Source of the DNA: a virus
Lineage: Duplodnaviria > Heunggongvirae > Uroviricota > Caudoviricetes
Direction: 5' to 3' (one strand)
Length of the DNA: 30,259 bases
Virus record (IMG/VR): IMGVR_UViG_2718217795_000001
Location: 1 to 30,259 of that record
Under the pieces are notes generated by a model. That model searched no databases. It was given only the letters and a program-made list of their open reading frames with translations, and was not told the DNA's origin. A program made the position numbers and the translations under genes. The first letter of the stretch is position 1, and each line of letters begins with the position of its first letter. Positions 19,789 through 29,186 of the stretch are shown piece by piece.

Positions 19789-20847
19789 ATGGCAGGTGAA
19801 ACTCAAAATATTTCAGCAATGGCGGAAAAGATATCTTCCGATTTATTTAAGTGGTTCAAGTGGGAGCTTGTTGGGGTAACCAATGAAAACTTTCAGTGTT
19901 TGAAGTCTACGCAACATAAAACAAAGTCTGGAACACACCCGACTGATGTTGTTTTTTCCTATAAGGATCCATACTTAAATCGGACGATTTTTTTAAATAC
20001 AGATTTAAAAAGTTATGTAAAAGGGTCGATAACAGCAACCTCAATGCGAAACGCATTAGTCTCATTGGCTAACTCTATTGATTGCGCAGAAGGTAGCAAG
20101 GAATGGAAGGATAGATACTCTTATCAAAGTGGCTCTTCTGAGGTTAGAGGAATGCTCTTTGTATATAATCATGATGGTGAGTTTGACAGATCGTTCTATG
20201 ATGTGTTTTATCAGTCTTATAATGCAGAAACTGATAAAACAAAACGGGGTATTAACCTTGATAATATTCCTCTAAAACAAGGTCAGAAGATTCATATTAT
20301 TGAGCCGAGAACTATAAATTATTTGCAATCAATAATTACGGACTTGTCTCAACTGAGTCACAATCGAGAATTTCCTTTAGGTAAAAATTACCAGTTCTTT
20401 TACCCAGACCTATCACTTCATAAAGTTAGCGGGTCACCTGAAGAACACCCGGCAACAGTAGAGTTGTTAACGGGGCCTTTTTTGATAATTAAACACAACG
20501 ATGTTAAACATTGTGATGAAGAAACTTTAGAGTGGAAAACAACCTATAAGCATGGTTATGTTATTTATTACAATGGCGAGGGTAATAATGAATTAGAGTT
20601 TGTTTATATTCTTGATACGTTATCAAAATACCAACTCTTGGATGGAAATGAAAAGATAAGAATTAGAATTGTACATCCAAGCATTTATAAAGATGTTCGC
20701 AGTATTTTTATGCGTGCTAAGGAAACATACTGTAGAGAATGGGGTTTCGATGAACATAAAAAAACCATCATTGATGCCATTGATTTTCACCAAGTTGAAT
20801 TTACAAAACCTCACTTCAGTTCTGTTGAGATTGGTTGGGAGCGATAA
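19789..20847 (+). CDS. Cassette gene 1: hypothetical protein, 352 aa, possible PD-(D/E)xK nuclease fold in N-terminus
   Basis: ATG with RBS; ~35% GC; N-terminal pattern E26 ... PTD52-VVF ... IFLNTD72-L-K74 fits a restriction-endonuclease-like core; no Walker A/B. Confidence 0.6.
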   Translation: MAGETQNISAMAEKISSDLFKWFKWELVGVTNENFQCLKSTQHKTKSGTHPTDVVFSYKDPYLNRTIFLNTDLKSYVKGSITATSMRNALVSLANSIDCAEGSKEWKDRYSYQSGSSEVRGMLFVYNHDGEFDRSFYDVFYQSYNAETDKTKRGINLDNIPLKQGQKIHIIEPRTINYLQSIITDLSQLSHNREFPLGKNYQFFYPDLSLHKVSGSPEEHPATVELLTGPFLIIKHNDVKHCDEETLEWKTTYKHGYVIYYNGEGNNELEFVYILDTLSKYQLLDGNEKIRIRIVHPSIYKDVRSIFMRAKETYCREWGFDEHKKTIIDAIDFHQVEFTKPHFSSVEIGWER

Positions 20848-20849
20848 GT

Positions 20850-21974
20850 ATGAAAATCGGTTTGTATAGCGTTAATGACAAAGCTATGTTTGATGCTCTC
20901 AATCAAACAAAGGTGACTCATGAAGACATGAAAAGCCTTTTTTTCAAAAGAGGCACTATTATTTCTAAGGATACAAAACGGAAGACTTTAGCTTTGGATT
21001 TTTCGAAGAACTTCCACGGCTATTATGACTTTGAATATTTATCAGAAATTCTTGGATCTGTAGGGAGAAGAGAGAAAGTATCAATTAATATTGTCAACAG
21101 TGCAATTAGTTTAAGTGATATGGAAGTCACAATAAAATCTATATGTGAAGAATTACAAAAAGAGGGGGATGTAACAAATATCAATTACACCGAGAATGGA
21201 TTTGAGGTGTCAGTAAAATATGTCAAGCTGGATTTTAAAATGAGCGAGTTTCGGCAATCCTCATCTCGCGAGGCTAAAATACAAGTAGAGTTGAATGATG
21301 AGGGAGAGTATATTACGCGCTTCCCTCAGAATGCCAAGGCACATGAGTTTAATGAACTTTTGATTAAAAAAATAAAAGAAACTAATAATGATGAGCCTGT
21401 AAGTCTTGAAGAGATATCGCTTGAAACGGTCAAAGATTCAAATGAACGTAGTCGTTTCTTTAAAGAACTGATCGTTAGTATGCCAAATTACAAATGTGTC
21501 GATGTGTCAGATGTTTATGTCACCCATCCAGTATTAGAGGTTAAAAAACCATCTGAATCTGAAGATGATGAAGATGACTCGGATGAGGATGATGATGCTG
21601 TAATAGACACTGGGTATCATATTTCAAAGGCATCATTGAAAGGAAGGGGTGTCCTTGAATCACCAGAACTGGAAGAGTTATTGGGTAATGGGTTTTACAT
21701 TACAAAGATAATATGGAGTTCGGTAGTCGAAGGTTTTAAAGACTCCGATAAGTATGAATTCGAAGCCCAGTTTGTGGATCCGGATAAATGTAAGCTGTTT
21801 TCTTATCTCGTTCGTGGATGTTATAAATATAAAAAAGTAAATGTGTTTACTAATCGGCAAAATGTGGATAAGGAAAAAGAAAATGTGCTATTATTATCAA
21901 TAGAAAAAACGGCTCGAGAAATCTCTAATAGAATAATATCTTTAAATACTCTCGAGGTAGTCACTGAAAAATAA
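20850..21974 (+). CDS. Cassette gene 2: hypothetical protein, 374 aa, with poly-acidic linker
   Basis: Track start is a TTG at 20835 overlapping gene 1; ATG at 20850 follows GGGAG RBS and lies 2 nt after gene 1 stop. Run SESEDDEDDSDEDDD at nt 21552-21596. Confidence 0.6.
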   Translation: MKIGLYSVNDKAMFDALNQTKVTHEDMKSLFFKRGTIISKDTKRKTLALDFSKNFHGYYDFEYLSEILGSVGRREKVSINIVNSAISLSDMEVTIKSICEELQKEGDVTNINYTENGFEVSVKYVKLDFKMSEFRQSSSREAKIQVELNDEGEYITRFPQNAKAHEFNELLIKKIKETNNDEPVSLEEISLETVKDSNERSRFFKELIVSMPNYKCVDVSDVYVTHPVLEVKKPSESEDDEDDSDEDDDAVIDTGYHISKASLKGRGVLESPELEELLGNGFYITKIIWSSVVEGFKDSDKYEFEAQFVDPDKCKLFSYLVRGCYKYKKVNVFTNRQNVDKEKENVLLLSIEKTAREISNRIISLNTLEVVTEK

Positions 21975-21985
21975 AAGGAGTTGTT

Positions 21986-22657
21986 ATGAAAACAAAATGG
22001 TTTACTGCCAACTTCCCTGCCGGTCTCGATAGGTTATACCAGGCCATCATAAACACGCCTTTTGACAGTGACAAAGGTTGGGGGTTTAGTATTCTTTCAT
22101 ATGAAGATAAGTATATATCTTCAAAATATATTGAAAGGGTTGAGGTAAGCGAAGTAATCATAGACCCCTATGGTAATGAAACTGAGTTTAATCATTTCAA
22201 ATATGTGCAGTTTAACTTTTGGTTTTTTAAAGCTCAAGGCGGTAACTTCATTTTAATAATTGATTCTCCGCCTAGAAGTATCAAGGGTTTTATCTCCAAT
22301 GTGATTAAGGCAACTGAATCCGATTTTAATGTTTCTTATCTTGTGATTCAAATTGATGAGTTTATAAAATTTATCACGCCTCACTTCGAAAAGGTTCAGG
22401 TGCACAAGGCCAAATTAAAGGATTTGACTTTTAGTAAAAATACATCTGGCATTTTAGAACTTGAGTCTTCAAATGACGCGATAGATGAGATGAGAAATAT
22501 TTTTAAAAATGCAAAATTCACGATTGATAAAGTTAAATTGAGTGTTAAATCTAACACTGGCAATGAAACATTAGAAGTGAATTCCAATGGTTCTCTTAGC
22601 TTCTCAGAGGAGCTTTTTGATAAGATATTCTCTGCAGTTGAGCGTTTCACTTTCTAA
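21986..22657 (+). CDS. Cassette gene 3: hypothetical protein, 223 aa
   Basis: ATG 11 nt after gene 2 stop with AAGGAG RBS; AT-rich; no recognisable motif. Confidence 0.6.
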   Translation: MKTKWFTANFPAGLDRLYQAIINTPFDSDKGWGFSILSYEDKYISSKYIERVEVSEVIIDPYGNETEFNHFKYVQFNFWFFKAQGGNFILIIDSPPRSIKGFISNVIKATESDFNVSYLVIQIDEFIKFITPHFEKVQVHKAKLKDLTFSKNTSGILELESSNDAIDEMRNIFKNAKFTIDKVKLSVKSNTGNETLEVNSNGSLSFSEELFDKIFSAVERFTF

Positions 22658-22847: not shown

Positions 22848-23030
22848 CTATTCGGCTTTATAGAAAATATCCGGGTCATCCTCAGCACTTTCACTGTTCG
22901 CTAAATCAGCAATAAGAGTGAGTGCGAGCTTAAGGTCTGACGGTTTGCAATTTGCAATCAGAGACACCTCTGCAATGAATTGTACACAAGCCCACTTTTG
23001 CTGAGTTCGGCTGAAATGTTCGCCAACCAT
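22848..23030 (-). CDS. Small SOS-regulated ORF, candidate Tum-like antirepressor (possibly truncated), 60 aa
   Basis: ATG with GGGAGGG RBS, about 20 bp downstream of a near-consensus LexA box; occupies the position between gene A and cos where 186 carries tum. No sequence homology asserted. Confidence 0.4.
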   Translation of the reverse strand: MVGEHFSRTQQKWACVQFIAEVSLIANCKPSDLKLALTLIADLANSESAEDDPDIFYKAE

Positions 23031-23052: not shown

Positions 23053-23072
23053 TACTGTATGTTTGTACAGTA
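23053..23072 (-). promoter_or_regulatory. LexA operator (SOS box)
   Basis: TACTGTATGTTTGTACAGTA: perfect CTGT-N8-ACAG core, 17/20 match to the TACTGTATATATATACAGTA consensus, very similar to the E. coli recA box. Confidence 0.8.
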
Positions 23073-26939: not shown

Positions 26940-27449
26940 TCAAATCAGACCGAATGACGCGCCAATACCGCTCATGGTATCGACAACACTCGTCATTGCT
27001 GGATTGGTCTGCAAACGTGCATGCAGCGCCAGTGCCGACAAAGACAACATGCGAATACCGGAGTTAACGCTTTCAATCATGGTGTGCTTACGGGCAGAGG
27101 TCAGACGCTCATCAGAGACCGCGCCGCTCGCCAGTTCGCCGAGTTCCCGCATAGCACGCATGACGTAAGACTGTAATTTGTCTTTTGCCAGCTCGTTGAC
27201 CGGTACACATGGCAGGCAATGAATCTGAGCCAAAAAACCATCAACTAAGGCTGAGTCTTCGGTCAGGTCTGTCAGTAGCCATAACTCAGGTGGGGTGAGC
27301 TGGTGAGGCTGTTCCGGGTTGAGCTTGTTACGTAACGTCTGAACATTCATTCCCGCACGTTCGGCAAGCTTCGTCATGTTGTGACGTTGAGCGAAAGCAC
27401 GACACGCATCGTCATAATGGGGATGTTTGGAAATCTGAAAATCAAACAT
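26940..27449 (-). CDS. cII: CII-like lysogeny-establishment regulator, 169 aa (start corrected)
   Basis: Track start is a TTG; ATG at 27447-27449 with GAGGGA RBS gives MFDFQISKHPHYDDACRAFAQRHNM... and exactly 169 aa, the length I recall for 186 CII; second gene of the early operon as in 186. Confidence 0.7.
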   Translation of the reverse strand: MFDFQISKHPHYDDACRAFAQRHNMTKLAERAGMNVQTLRNKLNPEQPHQLTPPELWLLTDLTEDSALVDGFLAQIHCLPCVPVNELAKDKLQSYVMRAMRELGELASGAVSDERLTSARKHTMIESVNSGIRMLSLSALALHARLQTNPAMTSVVDTMSGIGASFGLI

Positions 27450-27481
27450 GGTTAAGTTCCCTCTAACTTGCATAATCAAAT

Positions 27482-27853
27482 TCAGTTAAGAGCGGTGCGC
27501 TGGTCGATGTAGCGACAATCAATCGCTTGTTGAGTCAGTTTGTCGCGCCATGCTTTTACGTTTACGAGGGTGCGGCTTCGTTTACCGGCTTCCTCTTTGT
27601 TGGAAAAGTCTTTGGTCGGAGCTTTAAGAAGAATGCCCTCATCAAGCCATTGCCAGACCAGACGCTCGCTAACGCCGCGAGTGGCAGCAAAGTCTTTCAC
27701 TGTCATGGTGTCGGACATTGCAGAGCGAATCATTGTCTGCAGGGCTGGCAGCATTGCTGTAACGATGGCGTCAAACTGAGTGGGGTCTAACAGCACAGTT
27801 TGATTTTGTGAGTTTTGCGAGTCGTGCATCGAGATTGATTTTGCATCTGACAT
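27482..27853 (-). CDS. Apl/Cox-like HTH excisionase/regulator, 123 aa
   Basis: First gene of the early lytic operon, divergent from cI; AGGAGA RBS; core MTVKDFAATRGVSERLVWQWLDEGIL is an HTH; has an unusual ~45-aa N-terminal extension. Confidence 0.55.
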   Translation of the reverse strand: MSDAKSISMHDSQNSQNQTVLLDPTQFDAIVTAMLPALQTMIRSAMSDTMTVKDFAATRGVSERLVWQWLDEGILLKAPTKDFSNKEEAGKRSRTLVNVKAWRDKLTQQAIDCRYIDQRTALN

Positions 27854-27863
27854 ATCGCATTAT
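27835..27863 (+). promoter_or_regulatory. Candidate lysogenic promoter (pL/Pc-like), rightward
   Basis: TTGATT-N17-CATTAT overlapping the apl-like start; would fire toward cI, face-to-face with the leftward promoter. Confidence 0.3.
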
Positions 27864-27916
27864 CTCCTGTTGTTTGAAATGTGGTGCAGTGGTGTGCATC
27901 TTGGTCGATAAGCGCC

Positions 27917-27945
27917 ACTATAGATCGTAAAAAGTTATCTGTAAA
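27917..27945 (-). promoter_or_regulatory. Early lytic promoter (pR/Pe-like), leftward
   Basis: Minus strand reads TTTACA-N17-TATAGT (plus 27940-27945 and 27917-27922), ~55 nt upstream of the apl-like start. Confidence 0.6.
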
Positions 27946-27965
27946 CACCCATAAAATTATCTGTA
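27922..27965. repeat. Direct repeats TTATCTGTA (x2) plus degenerate AGATCGTAA over the lytic promoter: candidate CI operators
   Basis: TTATCTGTA at 27935-27943 (overlapping the -35) and 27957-27965, 22 bp apart; related AGATCGTAA at 27922-27930 next to the -10. Confidence 0.5.
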
Positions 27966-27974
27966 GGGGTTTTT

Positions 27975-28838
27975 ATGAGTTCTGAACTCGATGTTCAGTG
28001 GCGTATAGGTGCATCAAATGGCGTGTTAGAGCGCGTAATGTCAGCCTATGGCGTCAAGATGCAAAAGGATTTAGCTGACCTGTTGGGCATCGCTAAACAC
28101 AGCGTTAGTGGCTGGGTTCAACGCGATGCAATACCCGGCAATGTCATAGTTAGGTGTTGTCTTGATACTGGTGCTGATATCAATTGGCTTGTAAGTGGTG
28201 AGCTTGCAAATGCAAAACATGAGCGAGTCGGTTGCAAGCTAAAGGGCAAAGAACTCTATGACGAGATCATGACGAACGGGGGCAAAACCGTTTTGCGCAG
28301 AATTCTTGATGCTTATGGGTTTACGATGCAAAAAGAGCTTGGTGATTTATTGGGTATTTCTTCCGGCACTATAAGCACTTGGGTCAGGCGTGACTTTTTC
28401 CCGGGCGATGTGGTGGTGACCTGCGCACTTGACACTGGCGTTTCGTTGGAGTGGCTTTCTACAGGCAAAGGCAAGATGCGAGAAGGCAGGGAAAGTGAAT
28501 CTCTTAGCGCCTTAACAGTAAGAAAATGTCGCCTTGAAGCTGGCGAGCTTAAAGATATTGGGCGTTGGACTCCAGACCTTACAATGGTTCCTGAAAACAT
28601 TGATGAATTGATCTTTATTGATGGAGTAGGCGCATCTTGGCTTGTTGATTGTTCTAACTCAAAGATCGGTAATGGTCGTTGGCTTATTGGCATTGATGGT
28701 GCGCTCGATGTTTTTGATGTCATCAGGTTACCAGGTGGAAAGGTCAGGCTTTCAAATAAGTCTGCGGAGTTTGAATGTAATCTTTCAGACATCACACCAT
28801 CAGGTGCAGTGATTTTTACTTTGGAAAAGCATGTTTAA
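27975..28838 (+). CDS. cI: CI-type immunity repressor with tandemly duplicated N-terminal HTH domain, 287 aa
   Basis: Divergent from the early operon; residues 17-75 and 106-164 are ~50% identical copies of a 186-CI-like HTH module; distinct C-terminal domain. Confidence 0.7.
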   Translation: MSSELDVQWRIGASNGVLERVMSAYGVKMQKDLADLLGIAKHSVSGWVQRDAIPGNVIVRCCLDTGADINWLVSGELANAKHERVGCKLKGKELYDEIMTNGGKTVLRRILDAYGFTMQKELGDLLGISSGTISTWVRRDFFPGDVVVTCALDTGVSLEWLSTGKGKMREGRESESLSALTVRKCRLEAGELKDIGRWTPDLTMVPENIDELIFIDGVGASWLVDCSNSKIGNGRWLIGIDGALDVFDVIRLPGGKVRLSNKSAEFECNLSDITPSGAVIFTLEKHV

Positions 28839-28847
28839 GGAGCAGTT

Positions 28848-29186
28848 ATGAAAAAGTTATTATTTTTGATGGCCGGTATCGCGCTTTCTTCCTCAGCCTT
28901 AGCCGCTGAGAAATTTAAAGAGATTGATAGTAAATCTCTTGGTGATAAGTGGCCGCTTACCTTTGAGCATGCAAAAGTATCTTGTGTAAACAGTCACTAC
29001 GTTTTTGTTTATGACACTGACACGGATGAACGCTACCCCTTAAGCGGCATGGCTAAGAACGCCGTCAAGTCTGGAAAAATGGAAGGGCGAGATTTAAAAG
29101 AAGTTCTAAAAAAAGACCCTAACGATCCATTAGAACGAGCTGATATTGCTCCTGTTTTCAGTGAAGCCATAGCGCTTTGTGAATAA
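28848..29186 (+). CDS. Secreted small protein (moron) between cI and int, 112 aa
   Basis: AAGGAG RBS; N-terminal signal peptide MKKLLFLMAGIALSSSALA-AEK with AxA cleavage site; AT-richer than the backbone. Confidence 0.65.
   Translation: MKKLLFLMAGIALSSSALAAEKFKEIDSKSLGDKWPLTFEHAKVSCVNSHYVFVYDTDTDERYPLSGMAKNAVKSGKMEGRDLKEVLKKDPNDPLERADIAPVFSEAIALCE

Follow-up and report, generated by a model that had tools for sequence, protein, structure and literature searches.

A CI repressor with two N-terminal DNA-binding modules in P2/186-like prophages and a proposed division of labour between them

The 30,259-nucleotide stretch analyzed here (positions 1 to 30,259 of IMG/VR record IMGVR_UViG_2718217795_000001, hereafter the window) is a P2/186-like prophage (Peduoviridae, Eganvirus-like) whose cI gene encodes a 287-residue repressor with two helix-turn-helix (HTH) modules, M1 and M2, ahead of a C-terminal domain (CTD) of the 186 CI type, whereas the CI repressor of phage 186 has 192 residues and one such module. 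Comparative sequence analysis suggests that the two modules share out tasks between them, an arrangement that the 186 paradigm lacks. In the reading that we favour on balance, M1 would act as the immunity determinant by reading direct repeats at the early lytic promoter pR, M2 would read palindromes resembling in position the 186 sites FL, FR and pB as a dimer held together by the CTD, the CTD would provide 186-like oligomerisation and looping, and the antirepressor TumA would inactivate the part of the protein shared among relatives of different immunity.

The first-pass annotation of this DNA had claimed an internal repeat of about 50% identity between residues 17-75 and 106-164 (28023-28466, which corresponds to residues 17-164 of the window CI), and self-alignment of the protein bears this out. 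Residues 17-76 and 106-165 align without gaps with 32 of 60 positions identical, the local alignment score is 185 compared with 24.7 ± 4.7 in 2000 shuffles (z = 34), and the coding DNA of the two modules is 53% identical. Searching Pfam with hmmscan detects Phage_CI_repr (PF07022) in two stretches of the window CI (E = 6.7e-52; best M2 stretch 106-169) and one Phage_CI_C domain (PF16452; residues 182-275, E = 1.5e-17), and a single PF07022 in 186 CI. The 186 protein is colinear with residues 105-280 of the window CI at about 30% identity (phmmer to PDB entry 2FJR, E = 8e-21), M2 being colinear with its residues 9-76. Because 186 CI aligns to residues 105-280, M2 plus the CTD is, by this alignment, a whole 186-type CI, and residues 1-104 (M1 and the linker) are an addition to it.

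An AlphaFold2 model of the monomer, built with 75 homologues, contains three well-folded domains with a block-wise predicted local distance difference test (pLDDT) score of about 80-92 (M1 about 82-86, CTD about 90). Residues 79-87 (pLDDT <50) and 171-177 form disordered linkers, and a continuous helix at residues 91-114 enters M2 helix 1. The modeled CTD superimposes on the 186 CTD (2FKD_A) with a Foldseek template-modeling (TM) score of 0.88 and a root-mean-square deviation of 1.8 Å over 107 columns. As the linkers are disordered and the predicted TM-score (pTM) is only 0.39, no fixed packing between the domains is predicted, and a fixed intramolecular arrangement of M1 on M2 was rejected as a candidate, no geometry being readable from the model. 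At an offset of 89 residues, the two modules have eight invariant core positions in common (Y25/Y114, W47/W136, R50/R139, C61/C150, T65/T154, W71/W160, L72/L161 and G75/G164), indicating that both are kept as folded HTH domains. Two separate genes, or a mis-called open reading frame (ORF), can be excluded as the source of the repeat: the ORF is unbroken in all homologues examined, the linker motif KGKxLYDEIMxNGGK is conserved (22 sequences), and the internal Met99 is not conserved among homologues, which argues against a hidden internal start giving a product of 186 length. Stops in the upstream frame were found only in true single-module cI genes.

The two-module form is not peculiar to the window; PSP3 CI (NP_958086), 84% identical along its whole length (100%), is built in the same way, and hundreds of enterobacterial prophages carry the form too. 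The closest phage CIs, all full-length and colinear, are those of PSP3, SEN1 and vB_EcoM-613R3 (84%), SW9 (78%), and Midge and RCIP0057 (71%). The CIs of PSP3, SW9 and Midge give the same PF07022-PF07022-PF16452 calls, and cI has the same neighbours in all six of these phages as in the window (a gp30-type gene, cII, a DUF2511 gene and int); the window CI shows no difference in kind from the CIs of PSP3, SEN1, SW9, Midge and 613R3 and is a further member of their group. The exact protein is listed at NCBI as 'MULTISPECIES: phage repressor protein CI [Enterobacteriaceae]' on 37 contigs, IMG/VR holds 583 relatives, the best 120 matches in a collection of 5.8 billion proteins are all 267-289 residues long, and a two-module copy is present in 64 of 5426 complete E. 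coli genomes. Both forms exist among 391 collected homologues, with two N-terminal domains (NTDs) plus a CTD in 183 and one NTD plus a CTD in 142, as counted with local hidden Markov models. NCBIfam has no specific model, and a literature search found no prior description of the tandem HTH of PSP3-type CI, its operators or its binding; the extra length of PSP3 CI has been put down to 'a longer C-terminal domain' (PMC3448106). The PSP3-type two-module CI is common and already in databases, yet its architecture has apparently gone unremarked and was once misdescribed.

The two modules show contrasting patterns of conservation. Column entropy across 18 clade members is 1.31 bit in M1 versus 0.69 bit in M2. 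The M2 recognition helix (ISSGTISTWVRRD) is almost invariant in the clade, whereas that of M1 differs by group, reading IAKHSVSGWVQRD in the window and IHANNVSSWLARN, VPSNSVSTWVQRN, VPANNISSWIQRE or others elsewhere. Compared with SW9 and Midge, the window CI is 62% and 58% identical in M1, 97% and 95% in M2, and 87% and 75% in the CTD, respectively. At the DNA level, identity between the window and Midge is 92-100% over 27400-27900, falls to 28-68% over 27950-28300, a stretch spanning the pR operators, the N-terminus, M1 and the first linker, and is 76-84% in M2 (back up at 76-88% when SW9 is included). Because identity drops in this stretch and is high in its flanks, operator DNA and M1 are, on these comparisons, one variable cassette (about 27925-28290) between conserved flanks, the pattern that would be expected of an immunity determinant.

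Further loci behave in the same way. Across 86 related loci in 16 M1-helix groups, the pR operator stretch differs between groups and is shared within them, and in an independent case, the recombinant switch of Klebsiella phage 4LV2017, the pR repeats travel with M1. The claim that the extra module bears on immunity specificity is upheld to the extent that pR operator DNA varies along with M1. PSP3, SEN1 and 613R3 share the window's M1 helix and both pR repeats, with one or two changes, and therefore probably have the same immunity as the window.

The pR analogue is the sole sigma-70-like match in 27400-28100 (10 of 12 positions), drives the 27853..27482 ORF and cII, and has a core conserved in 13 distinct switch types. 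The paired direct repeats that had been noticed near it are real: two 13-nt copies, AAAGTTATCTGTA (27931-27943) and AAAATTATCTGTA (27953-27965), lie 22 bp apart, the first overlapping the -35 hexamer and part of the spacer, and a repeat as good arises in just 1% of shuffles of the 75-nt region. The predicted change in operator geometry is also borne out, as 186 pR has a 20-bp palindrome whereas the window pR has direct repeats only. On the CI wheel, the three operators at 186 pR are described as phased by two DNA turns (PMC3675496), which the 22-bp spacing matches. Direct repeats at 21 bp are clear in immunity groups D (ATCGAwwwTGAGT) and E (AAwTTAATTTTG). No further AAARTTATCTGTA copies of the pR repeat with up to two mismatches were found in the window or the PSP3 locus, and use of the same repeat at the FL-, FR- and pB-like sites was rejected on that ground.

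The first-pass annotation had also proposed that the two modules could recognise the paired repeats; taken as both modules of a single chain binding the pair, this agrees poorly with the data. The repeats are near-identical and the recognition helices IAKHSVSGWVQRD and ISSGTISTWVRRD differ, and in heteroimmune relatives the repeats change with M1 and M2 is nearly invariant, which makes M1 on one repeat and M2 on the other unlikely. Two M1 domains from neighbouring subunits on the repeats would be the simpler reading.

A related arrangement, in which M1 and M2 of one chain form a pseudo-dimer that jointly reads each 13-bp repeat or the repeat pair, is in our judgement unlikely. It would accord with a linker whose length would let it bridge neighbouring major grooves, with the non-palindromic operator units, with their split across immunity groups into a variable left part and a more conserved right part of TG(T/G) type, and with the recurrence of a common CTnTAnAT at 21-bp phasing. 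However, the conserved right part falls on the -35 hexamer and the ribosome-binding site of cI and would need no repressor to be kept, and the repeat units differ strongly among groups in which M2 is invariant. Moreover, single-module CIs with an M2-type helix use a palindrome and not these units, the AlphaFold2 model has no M1-M2 packing, and a pseudo-dimer would leave conserved palindromes at FL-, FR- and pB-like positions unexplained. Engineered single-chain 434 repressors have two DNA-contacting domains per chain and read one contiguous asymmetric site. A monomeric mycobacteriophage immunity repressor likewise uses two DNA-contacting domains on one contiguous asymmetric site (PMC9283540). 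These proteins are like the window CI in that their sites need not be palindromic, but they are unrelated to it in sequence, and they read a joint site whereas the comparative evidence for the window CI favours separate targets on an oligomerising scaffold of 186 type.

Paired non-palindromic direct repeats at the early promoter are bound by the P2 C repressors (P2, WPhi and P2 Hy dis), with repeat sequence, spacing and position varying by immunity group (PMC1904263, PMC1904268, PMC2995052). P2 C resembles the window CI solely in this operator style; unlike the window CI, it has about 100 residues and one HTH, belongs to another family, and lacks a CI-type CTD and an accompanying cII. No P2 C-type family was found in the window CI among Pfam hits above curated cut-offs, which comprise only 186-type domains.

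The proposed target of M2 is the palindrome TTGCAnnTGCAA, a pattern with a single exact match in the window (28204-28215), located at +229 from the cI ATG, about 267 bp from the pR -35, in the linker after M1. According to the annotation of the 186 record, FL lies at +269 in 186 cI, likewise in the linker after the HTH domain. With up to two mismatches, the FL-like palindrome is present in 86 of 86 two-module loci, and it is exact in 42 of them. Variants with SLHLQ or NSHLQ instead of LANA keep the palindrome in another frame, three codons along (AGT TTG CAT TTG CAA), and one variant carries the symmetric change TCGCAttTGCGA. GCA makes up 86% of the Ala codons at the two positions within the site (50 distinct genes) versus 21% of those elsewhere in cI, an odds ratio of 22 whose p-value is only indicative because the sequences are related. 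Taken at the level of sequence, these patterns are support for selection on the palindrome as DNA.

Copies of the palindrome also occur at other positions that are operators in 186. Those with at most one mismatch cluster at the cII/gp30 junction of 21 loci, some 500 bp upstream of cI (0.2 hits in each shuffled locus), and 186 FR is annotated at the apl/cII junction. Upstream of the PSP3 late-activator gene (pag/ogr) lies TTGCATTTGCAA, and three heteroimmune phages, PSP3, SW9 and Midge, have the 12-mer TTGCAAATGCAA across the -35 of their ogr/pag promoter; in the 186 record, two CI sites repress pB at the late-activator promoter. The PSP3-type clade has the conserved palindrome at the equivalents of the 186 FL, FR and late-activator sites. 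The spacer of the putative pL, a promoter that scores 8 of 12 and falls below the promoter-scan threshold, contains TTGCATCTGACA, a palindrome-like copy with two mismatches. In immunity group E (L037-L046), the pR -35 region reads TTGCAATGGCAA, a copy with one mismatch, and an M2-type site may also be present at pR in some immunity types.

Comparison with 186 places these sites in context. 186 CI assembles as a seven-dimer wheel that wraps DNA and loops it, and its distal operators lie about 300 bp either side of pR, FL in cI and FR at the apl/cII junction. The CI sites annotated in the 186 record are of two sequence types, pR versus pB/FL/FR, in line with the description of 186 CI inverted repeats as being 'of two types' (PMC1904263). 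The window CI and 186 CI (PDB 2FJR, 2FKD) are alike in PF07022 plus PF16452, in CTD fold and in the cI-int and convergent apl/cII gene context, and both phages have palindromes inside cI and at the cII junction (candidate sites in the window) and a LexA-regulated antirepressor gene (putative in the window). They differ in that 186 CI has one HTH, palindromic pR operators (TATCTCCCAATTGAGAGATA) and distal sites of the form ATTCAC-N5-GTGAAT, whereas the window CI has two HTH, non-palindromic direct repeats at pR and TTGCAnnTGCAA as the distal palindrome.

Within the clade, co-variation between the M2 helix and the palindrome is uninformative, as M2 helices are almost invariant in the 86 loci, and the association was drawn from the contrast with 186-type loci. 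Every one of the 80 186-type loci contains the 186 distal/pB palindrome TTCAC-N5-GTGAA, which was seen in none of the PSP3-type or P0252-type loci; conversely, TTGCAnnTGCAA was found in none of the 186-type loci. Because this distribution is reciprocal, the distal-operator type, as far as these loci go, tracks the recognition helix carried by the module next to the CTD (186, SSSLSNRYTRG; window, SSGTISTWVRRD). In the P0252-type loci, whose CI has a single module, the palindrome lies 42 bp upstream of cI and 2 bp from a leftward TTGACA -35, on its -10 side.

The P0252-type switch raises the alternative that M2 is kept mainly for dual immunity, to repress a second heteroimmune group of phages or satellites with the M2-type palindrome at pR. 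M2 is 80% identical to the P0252-type NTD, whose switch has the palindrome beside the pR -35, and 4LV2017-type CIs are literal NTD fusions of two single-module CI families. We nevertheless regard it as very improbable, since the palindrome is conserved at three places in the phages' own genome that match 186 distal and late operators, which argues for a role in cis.

Induction provides a further constraint on the shared part of the protein. Phage 186 is induced by the LexA-controlled antirepressor Tum and not by RecA-stimulated self-cleavage. The window carries a tumA-type gene preceded by a LexA box. Among phage records, TumA homologues, about 90% identical, coincide exactly with two-module CI: the 10 records with the one have the other, and SW9 and Midge, which are heteroimmune, are among them. 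In PSP3, where tum is split, the upstream half is reported as the antirepressor (PMC3121763). A LexA-controlled TumA acting on CI is, by its sequence and context, the likely route of SOS induction. Since TumA is conserved across heteroimmune phages, it would act on a conserved part of CI, possibly M2, and this is a second possible reason for M2 conservation.

Carried further, M2 would have lost DNA binding altogether and been kept as a docking surface for TumA or a spacer in the CTD oligomer, leaving M1 as the sole working DNA binder and the palindrome as the site of another factor or a coincidence. The co-occurrence of TumA with two-module CI in 10 of 10 records and the standing of M2 as the most conserved part of CI (95-97% versus 75-87% for the CTD) would fit such a role, but we hold it to be decidedly unlikely. 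M2 keeps all HTH hallmarks, with a basic RR following its recognition helix; in the single-module CIs P0252, P0255 and P0258, the sole NTD, and thus the only domain that binds DNA, matches M2 at 80%, 73% and 65% identity, respectively; and the FL-like palindrome, besides its signs of DNA-level selection, co-occurs with an M2-type helix in single- and two-module loci and is absent from 186-type loci.

Several observations weigh against the reading in which M1 serves pR and M2 the palindromes. The module-to-site assignments rest on co-variation among related, physically linked sequences, a pattern that phylogeny or recombination can mimic. The paired repeat is clear only in some groups (22 bp in the window, 21 bp in D and E), and in loci L047 and L048, which have the window's M1 helix and another right flank, the second copy is absent or inverted. 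Summed autocorrelation over 13 distinct switch sequences has its sole peak at lag 21 (z = 6.9), a signal that comes partly from the common CTnTAnAT at -10 and -35. On the side of M2, the FR-like copy in the window carries two mismatches, the late-activator promoter lies outside the window, and the palindrome at that promoter coincides with the TTGCAA -35 hexamer. The palindrome could be bound by another conserved protein, TumA docking alone could explain M2 conservation, and the inter-domain geometry of the AlphaFold2 model carries no confidence at its pTM of 0.39. Finally, a generic repeat test is significant in only two of 16 switch types (the window group and group E). On the same count, and given three direct TTCACA repeats next to 207-residue single-module CIs, a general rule that two modules go with direct repeats and one with palindromes was rejected; as direct repeats also occur next to single-module CIs, they are no signature of the tandem form.

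With these points taken into account, the favoured division between M1 and M2 would operate as follows. M1 domains of neighbouring subunits would bind the two 13-bp direct repeats over the pR -35 and thereby set immunity, with the long flexible tether of M1 relaxing the symmetry that forces palindromes on 186 CI. M2 domains of a CTD-held dimer would bind TTGCAnnTGCAA at three places, namely within cI, at the junction with cII and at the promoter of the late activator, providing 186-like long-range cooperativity and late-gene repression. LexA-controlled TumA could then induce all heteroimmune carriers, because M2 and the CTD are common to them. Shearwin, Dodd and Egan (2002) reportedly found that the single HTH of 186 CI reads both site types; here the two tasks would be split between two modules.

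The description of the two modules as a tandem duplication survives in part. When the modules are placed in an unbootstrapped neighbour-joining tree over 66 columns, M1s form one group and M2s its sister group, and M2-type modules, at about 50% identity, are the best matches that the window M1 has beyond its own group. An old duplication followed by fast divergence is therefore plausible for the window clade and fits these sequence data, although it is unproven, and it does not extend to the 4LV2017 clade, which is a fusion. P0252, P0255 and P0258, the single-module relatives of M2, are truly single-module, with stops in the upstream frames.

By the same kind of comparison, the two-module form has arisen more than once. 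The 4LV2017 CI has 313 residues, two PF07022 stretches and 31% identity to the window CI. M1 of this type is 85-87% identical to the NTD of the 207-residue single-module CIs and M2 is 82% identical to the NTD of 196-residue single-module CIs, so that the 4LV2017-type CI is, on sequence grounds, of separate origin, a fusion of two single-module CI lineages. The N-terminus of the 196-residue family (MSTSKYPNEIKINPNQGGKAAIERL) persists as its inter-module linker. Its switch is a matching recombinant (loci L003 2380-2420, and L270-L273 and L332-L343 about 130 bp upstream of cI). The TTCACA direct repeats and M1 derive from the 207-residue family, whereas M2, the CTD and the left portion of the switch derive from the 196-residue family. 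The 4LV2017-type CI is like the window CI in having two PF07022 and one PF16452 in a Peduoviridae switch, and unlike it in that both helices are 186-like (S-x-S-T-L/M-A-N-R-Y) and the repeats are TTCACA. No FL-like palindromes were found in 4LV2017 and related single-module loci. The pR of the 196-residue family has a 186-like CCCCAAATGGGA palindrome, which was lost in the 4LV2017 fusion.

A further two-module group comprises P0296, P0307 and P0312. Other proteins carry more copies of the domain: P0375 (323 residues, a metagenomic representative) has three Phage_CI_repr-like modules and no detectable CI CTD, P0329 (525 residues) has seven matched stretches, and P0370 (1170 residues) has five. 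A single-module M2-type CI family (196 residues; L188-L218) lies at the extreme end of viral contigs, many of about 15 kb. In L194 (1402-2091), a DAHP-synthase-like host gene follows cI, and a 91-residue ORF and a DksA/TraR-type zinc-finger gene lie upstream. This family may reside in a small satellite-like or remnant element and not in a full P2-like phage.

The coordinates of the switch and its neighbouring genes are given in Table 1. The gp30-type protein has been called a singleton without a detectable domain in PSP3 (PMC3448106); it has weak Cox-like matches (phrog_575, E = 1.5e-4; Pfam Phage_Cox, E = 0.028) and is a probable Apl/Cox analogue. Between pR and the putative pL, the element GTGCAGTGGTGTGCAT (27884-27899) contains two GTGCA copies 10 bp apart (TGCA-N6-TGCA, 27885-27898) and is kept across immunity groups. 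186 Apl sites are direct repeats one turn apart (PMC7498355), and by analogy this element is likely the site of the gp30-type Cox/Apl analogue; it may also serve as an M2 site or half-site. The product of the DUF2511 gene possibly has a lysogenic-conversion function, as the gene would be expressed from the lysogenic operon.

Elsewhere in the window, three adjacent ORFs on the plus strand (19789-22657) encode proteins of 352, 379 and 223 residues that have no Pfam match, fall into PHROGs of unknown function, and match PADLOC Hp1, Hp2 and Hp3 (PDLC03004-6; E = 3e-65, 6e-36 and 5e-8). They are probably a three-gene anti-phage cargo system, located between the portal/terminase and replication genes. 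The window begins at the stop codon of a tail gene D homologue and finishes (30259) at the int stop codon; just beyond it lie the att site and the late-activator gene (ogr/pag) with its promoter, where the palindrome is expected.

Table 1. Features of the cI switch region and associated genes in the window (. = no strand assigned).
Feature	Coordinates	Strand	Description
tumA-type antirepressor gene	22848..23030	-	60 residues; 90% identical to PSP3 TumA
LexA box	23055..23070	-	CTGTATGTTTGTACAG; precedes the tumA-type gene
cII	26940..27479	-	CP76-type lysogeny establishment activator; PF06892, E = 8.5e-48
FR-like degenerate palindrome	27468..27479	.	TTGCATAATCAA; cII / orf27482 junction, about 470 bp from pR; 2 mismatches; 186 FR analogue
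gp30-type gene (PSP3)	27482..27853	-	123 residues; phrog_3554; 186 apl position
Putative pL (lysogenic promoter)	27835..27863	+	TTGATT-17-CATTAT, convergent with pR; read from sequence and by analogy with 186 pL
pR analogue (leftward early lytic promoter)	27917..27945	-	-35 TTTACA 27945-27940, 17-nt spacer, -10 TATAGT 27922-27917
Two direct repeats	27931..27965	.	AAA(G/A)TTATCTGTA; proposed M1 operators
cI	27975..28838	+	287-residue repressor, M1 - linker - M2 - linker - 186-type CTD; from ORF, Pfam and PSP3 match
Module 1 (M1), residues 17-76	28023..28202	+	Phage_CI_repr HTH; recognition helix IAKHSVSGWVQRD; proposed immunity / pR-reading module
Inter-module linker, residues 77-104	28203..28286	+	Disordered at 79-87, then conserved helix KGKxLYDEIMxNGGK into M2 helix 1
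Palindrome, 12 bp	28204..28215	.	TTGCAAATGCAA; inside cI, codons L77-A-N-A-K81; positional analogue of FL; proposed M2 site
Module 2 (M2), residues 105-165	28287..28469	+	Inner Phage_CI_repr HTH; recognition helix ISSGTISTWVRRD; counterpart of the sole NTD of 186 CI
C-terminal oligomerisation domain, residues 182-287	28518..28835	+	186 CI CTD fold; PF16452, Foldseek and AlphaFold2
DUF2511 (YebY-like) gene	28848..29186	+	Between cI and int, as in PSP3, SEN1, SW9 and Midge; signal-peptide-like N-terminus

Collectively, these comparisons allow a tentative view, which we hold at somewhat short of an even chance, of the PSP3-type CI as a repressor of split specificity. An exchangeable outer HTH and its operators would form a portable immunity cassette, a fixed inner HTH would read a clade-wide palindrome and offer a common handle for the SOS antirepressor, and new or dual immunities would arise by HTH duplication or fusion. 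If this is true, looping, late-gene control and induction need no rebuilding when new immunities arise. Few alternatives to lambda are understood quantitatively; the 186 switch is among them, and a common relative of it seems to use two domains for two jobs, so that the two-module CI lets the question be tested of how one repressor serves both local immunity and long-range or late-gene control. For annotation, proteins labeled just 'phage repressor protein CI' split into one- and two-module classes of distinct origin. For the P2/186-like prophages of Klebsiella, Enterobacter, Salmonella and E. coli, the suggested way of diversifying immunity is to swap the operator and M1 cassette while keeping the induction pathway, which bears on cross-induction and superinfection exclusion among co-resident prophages.

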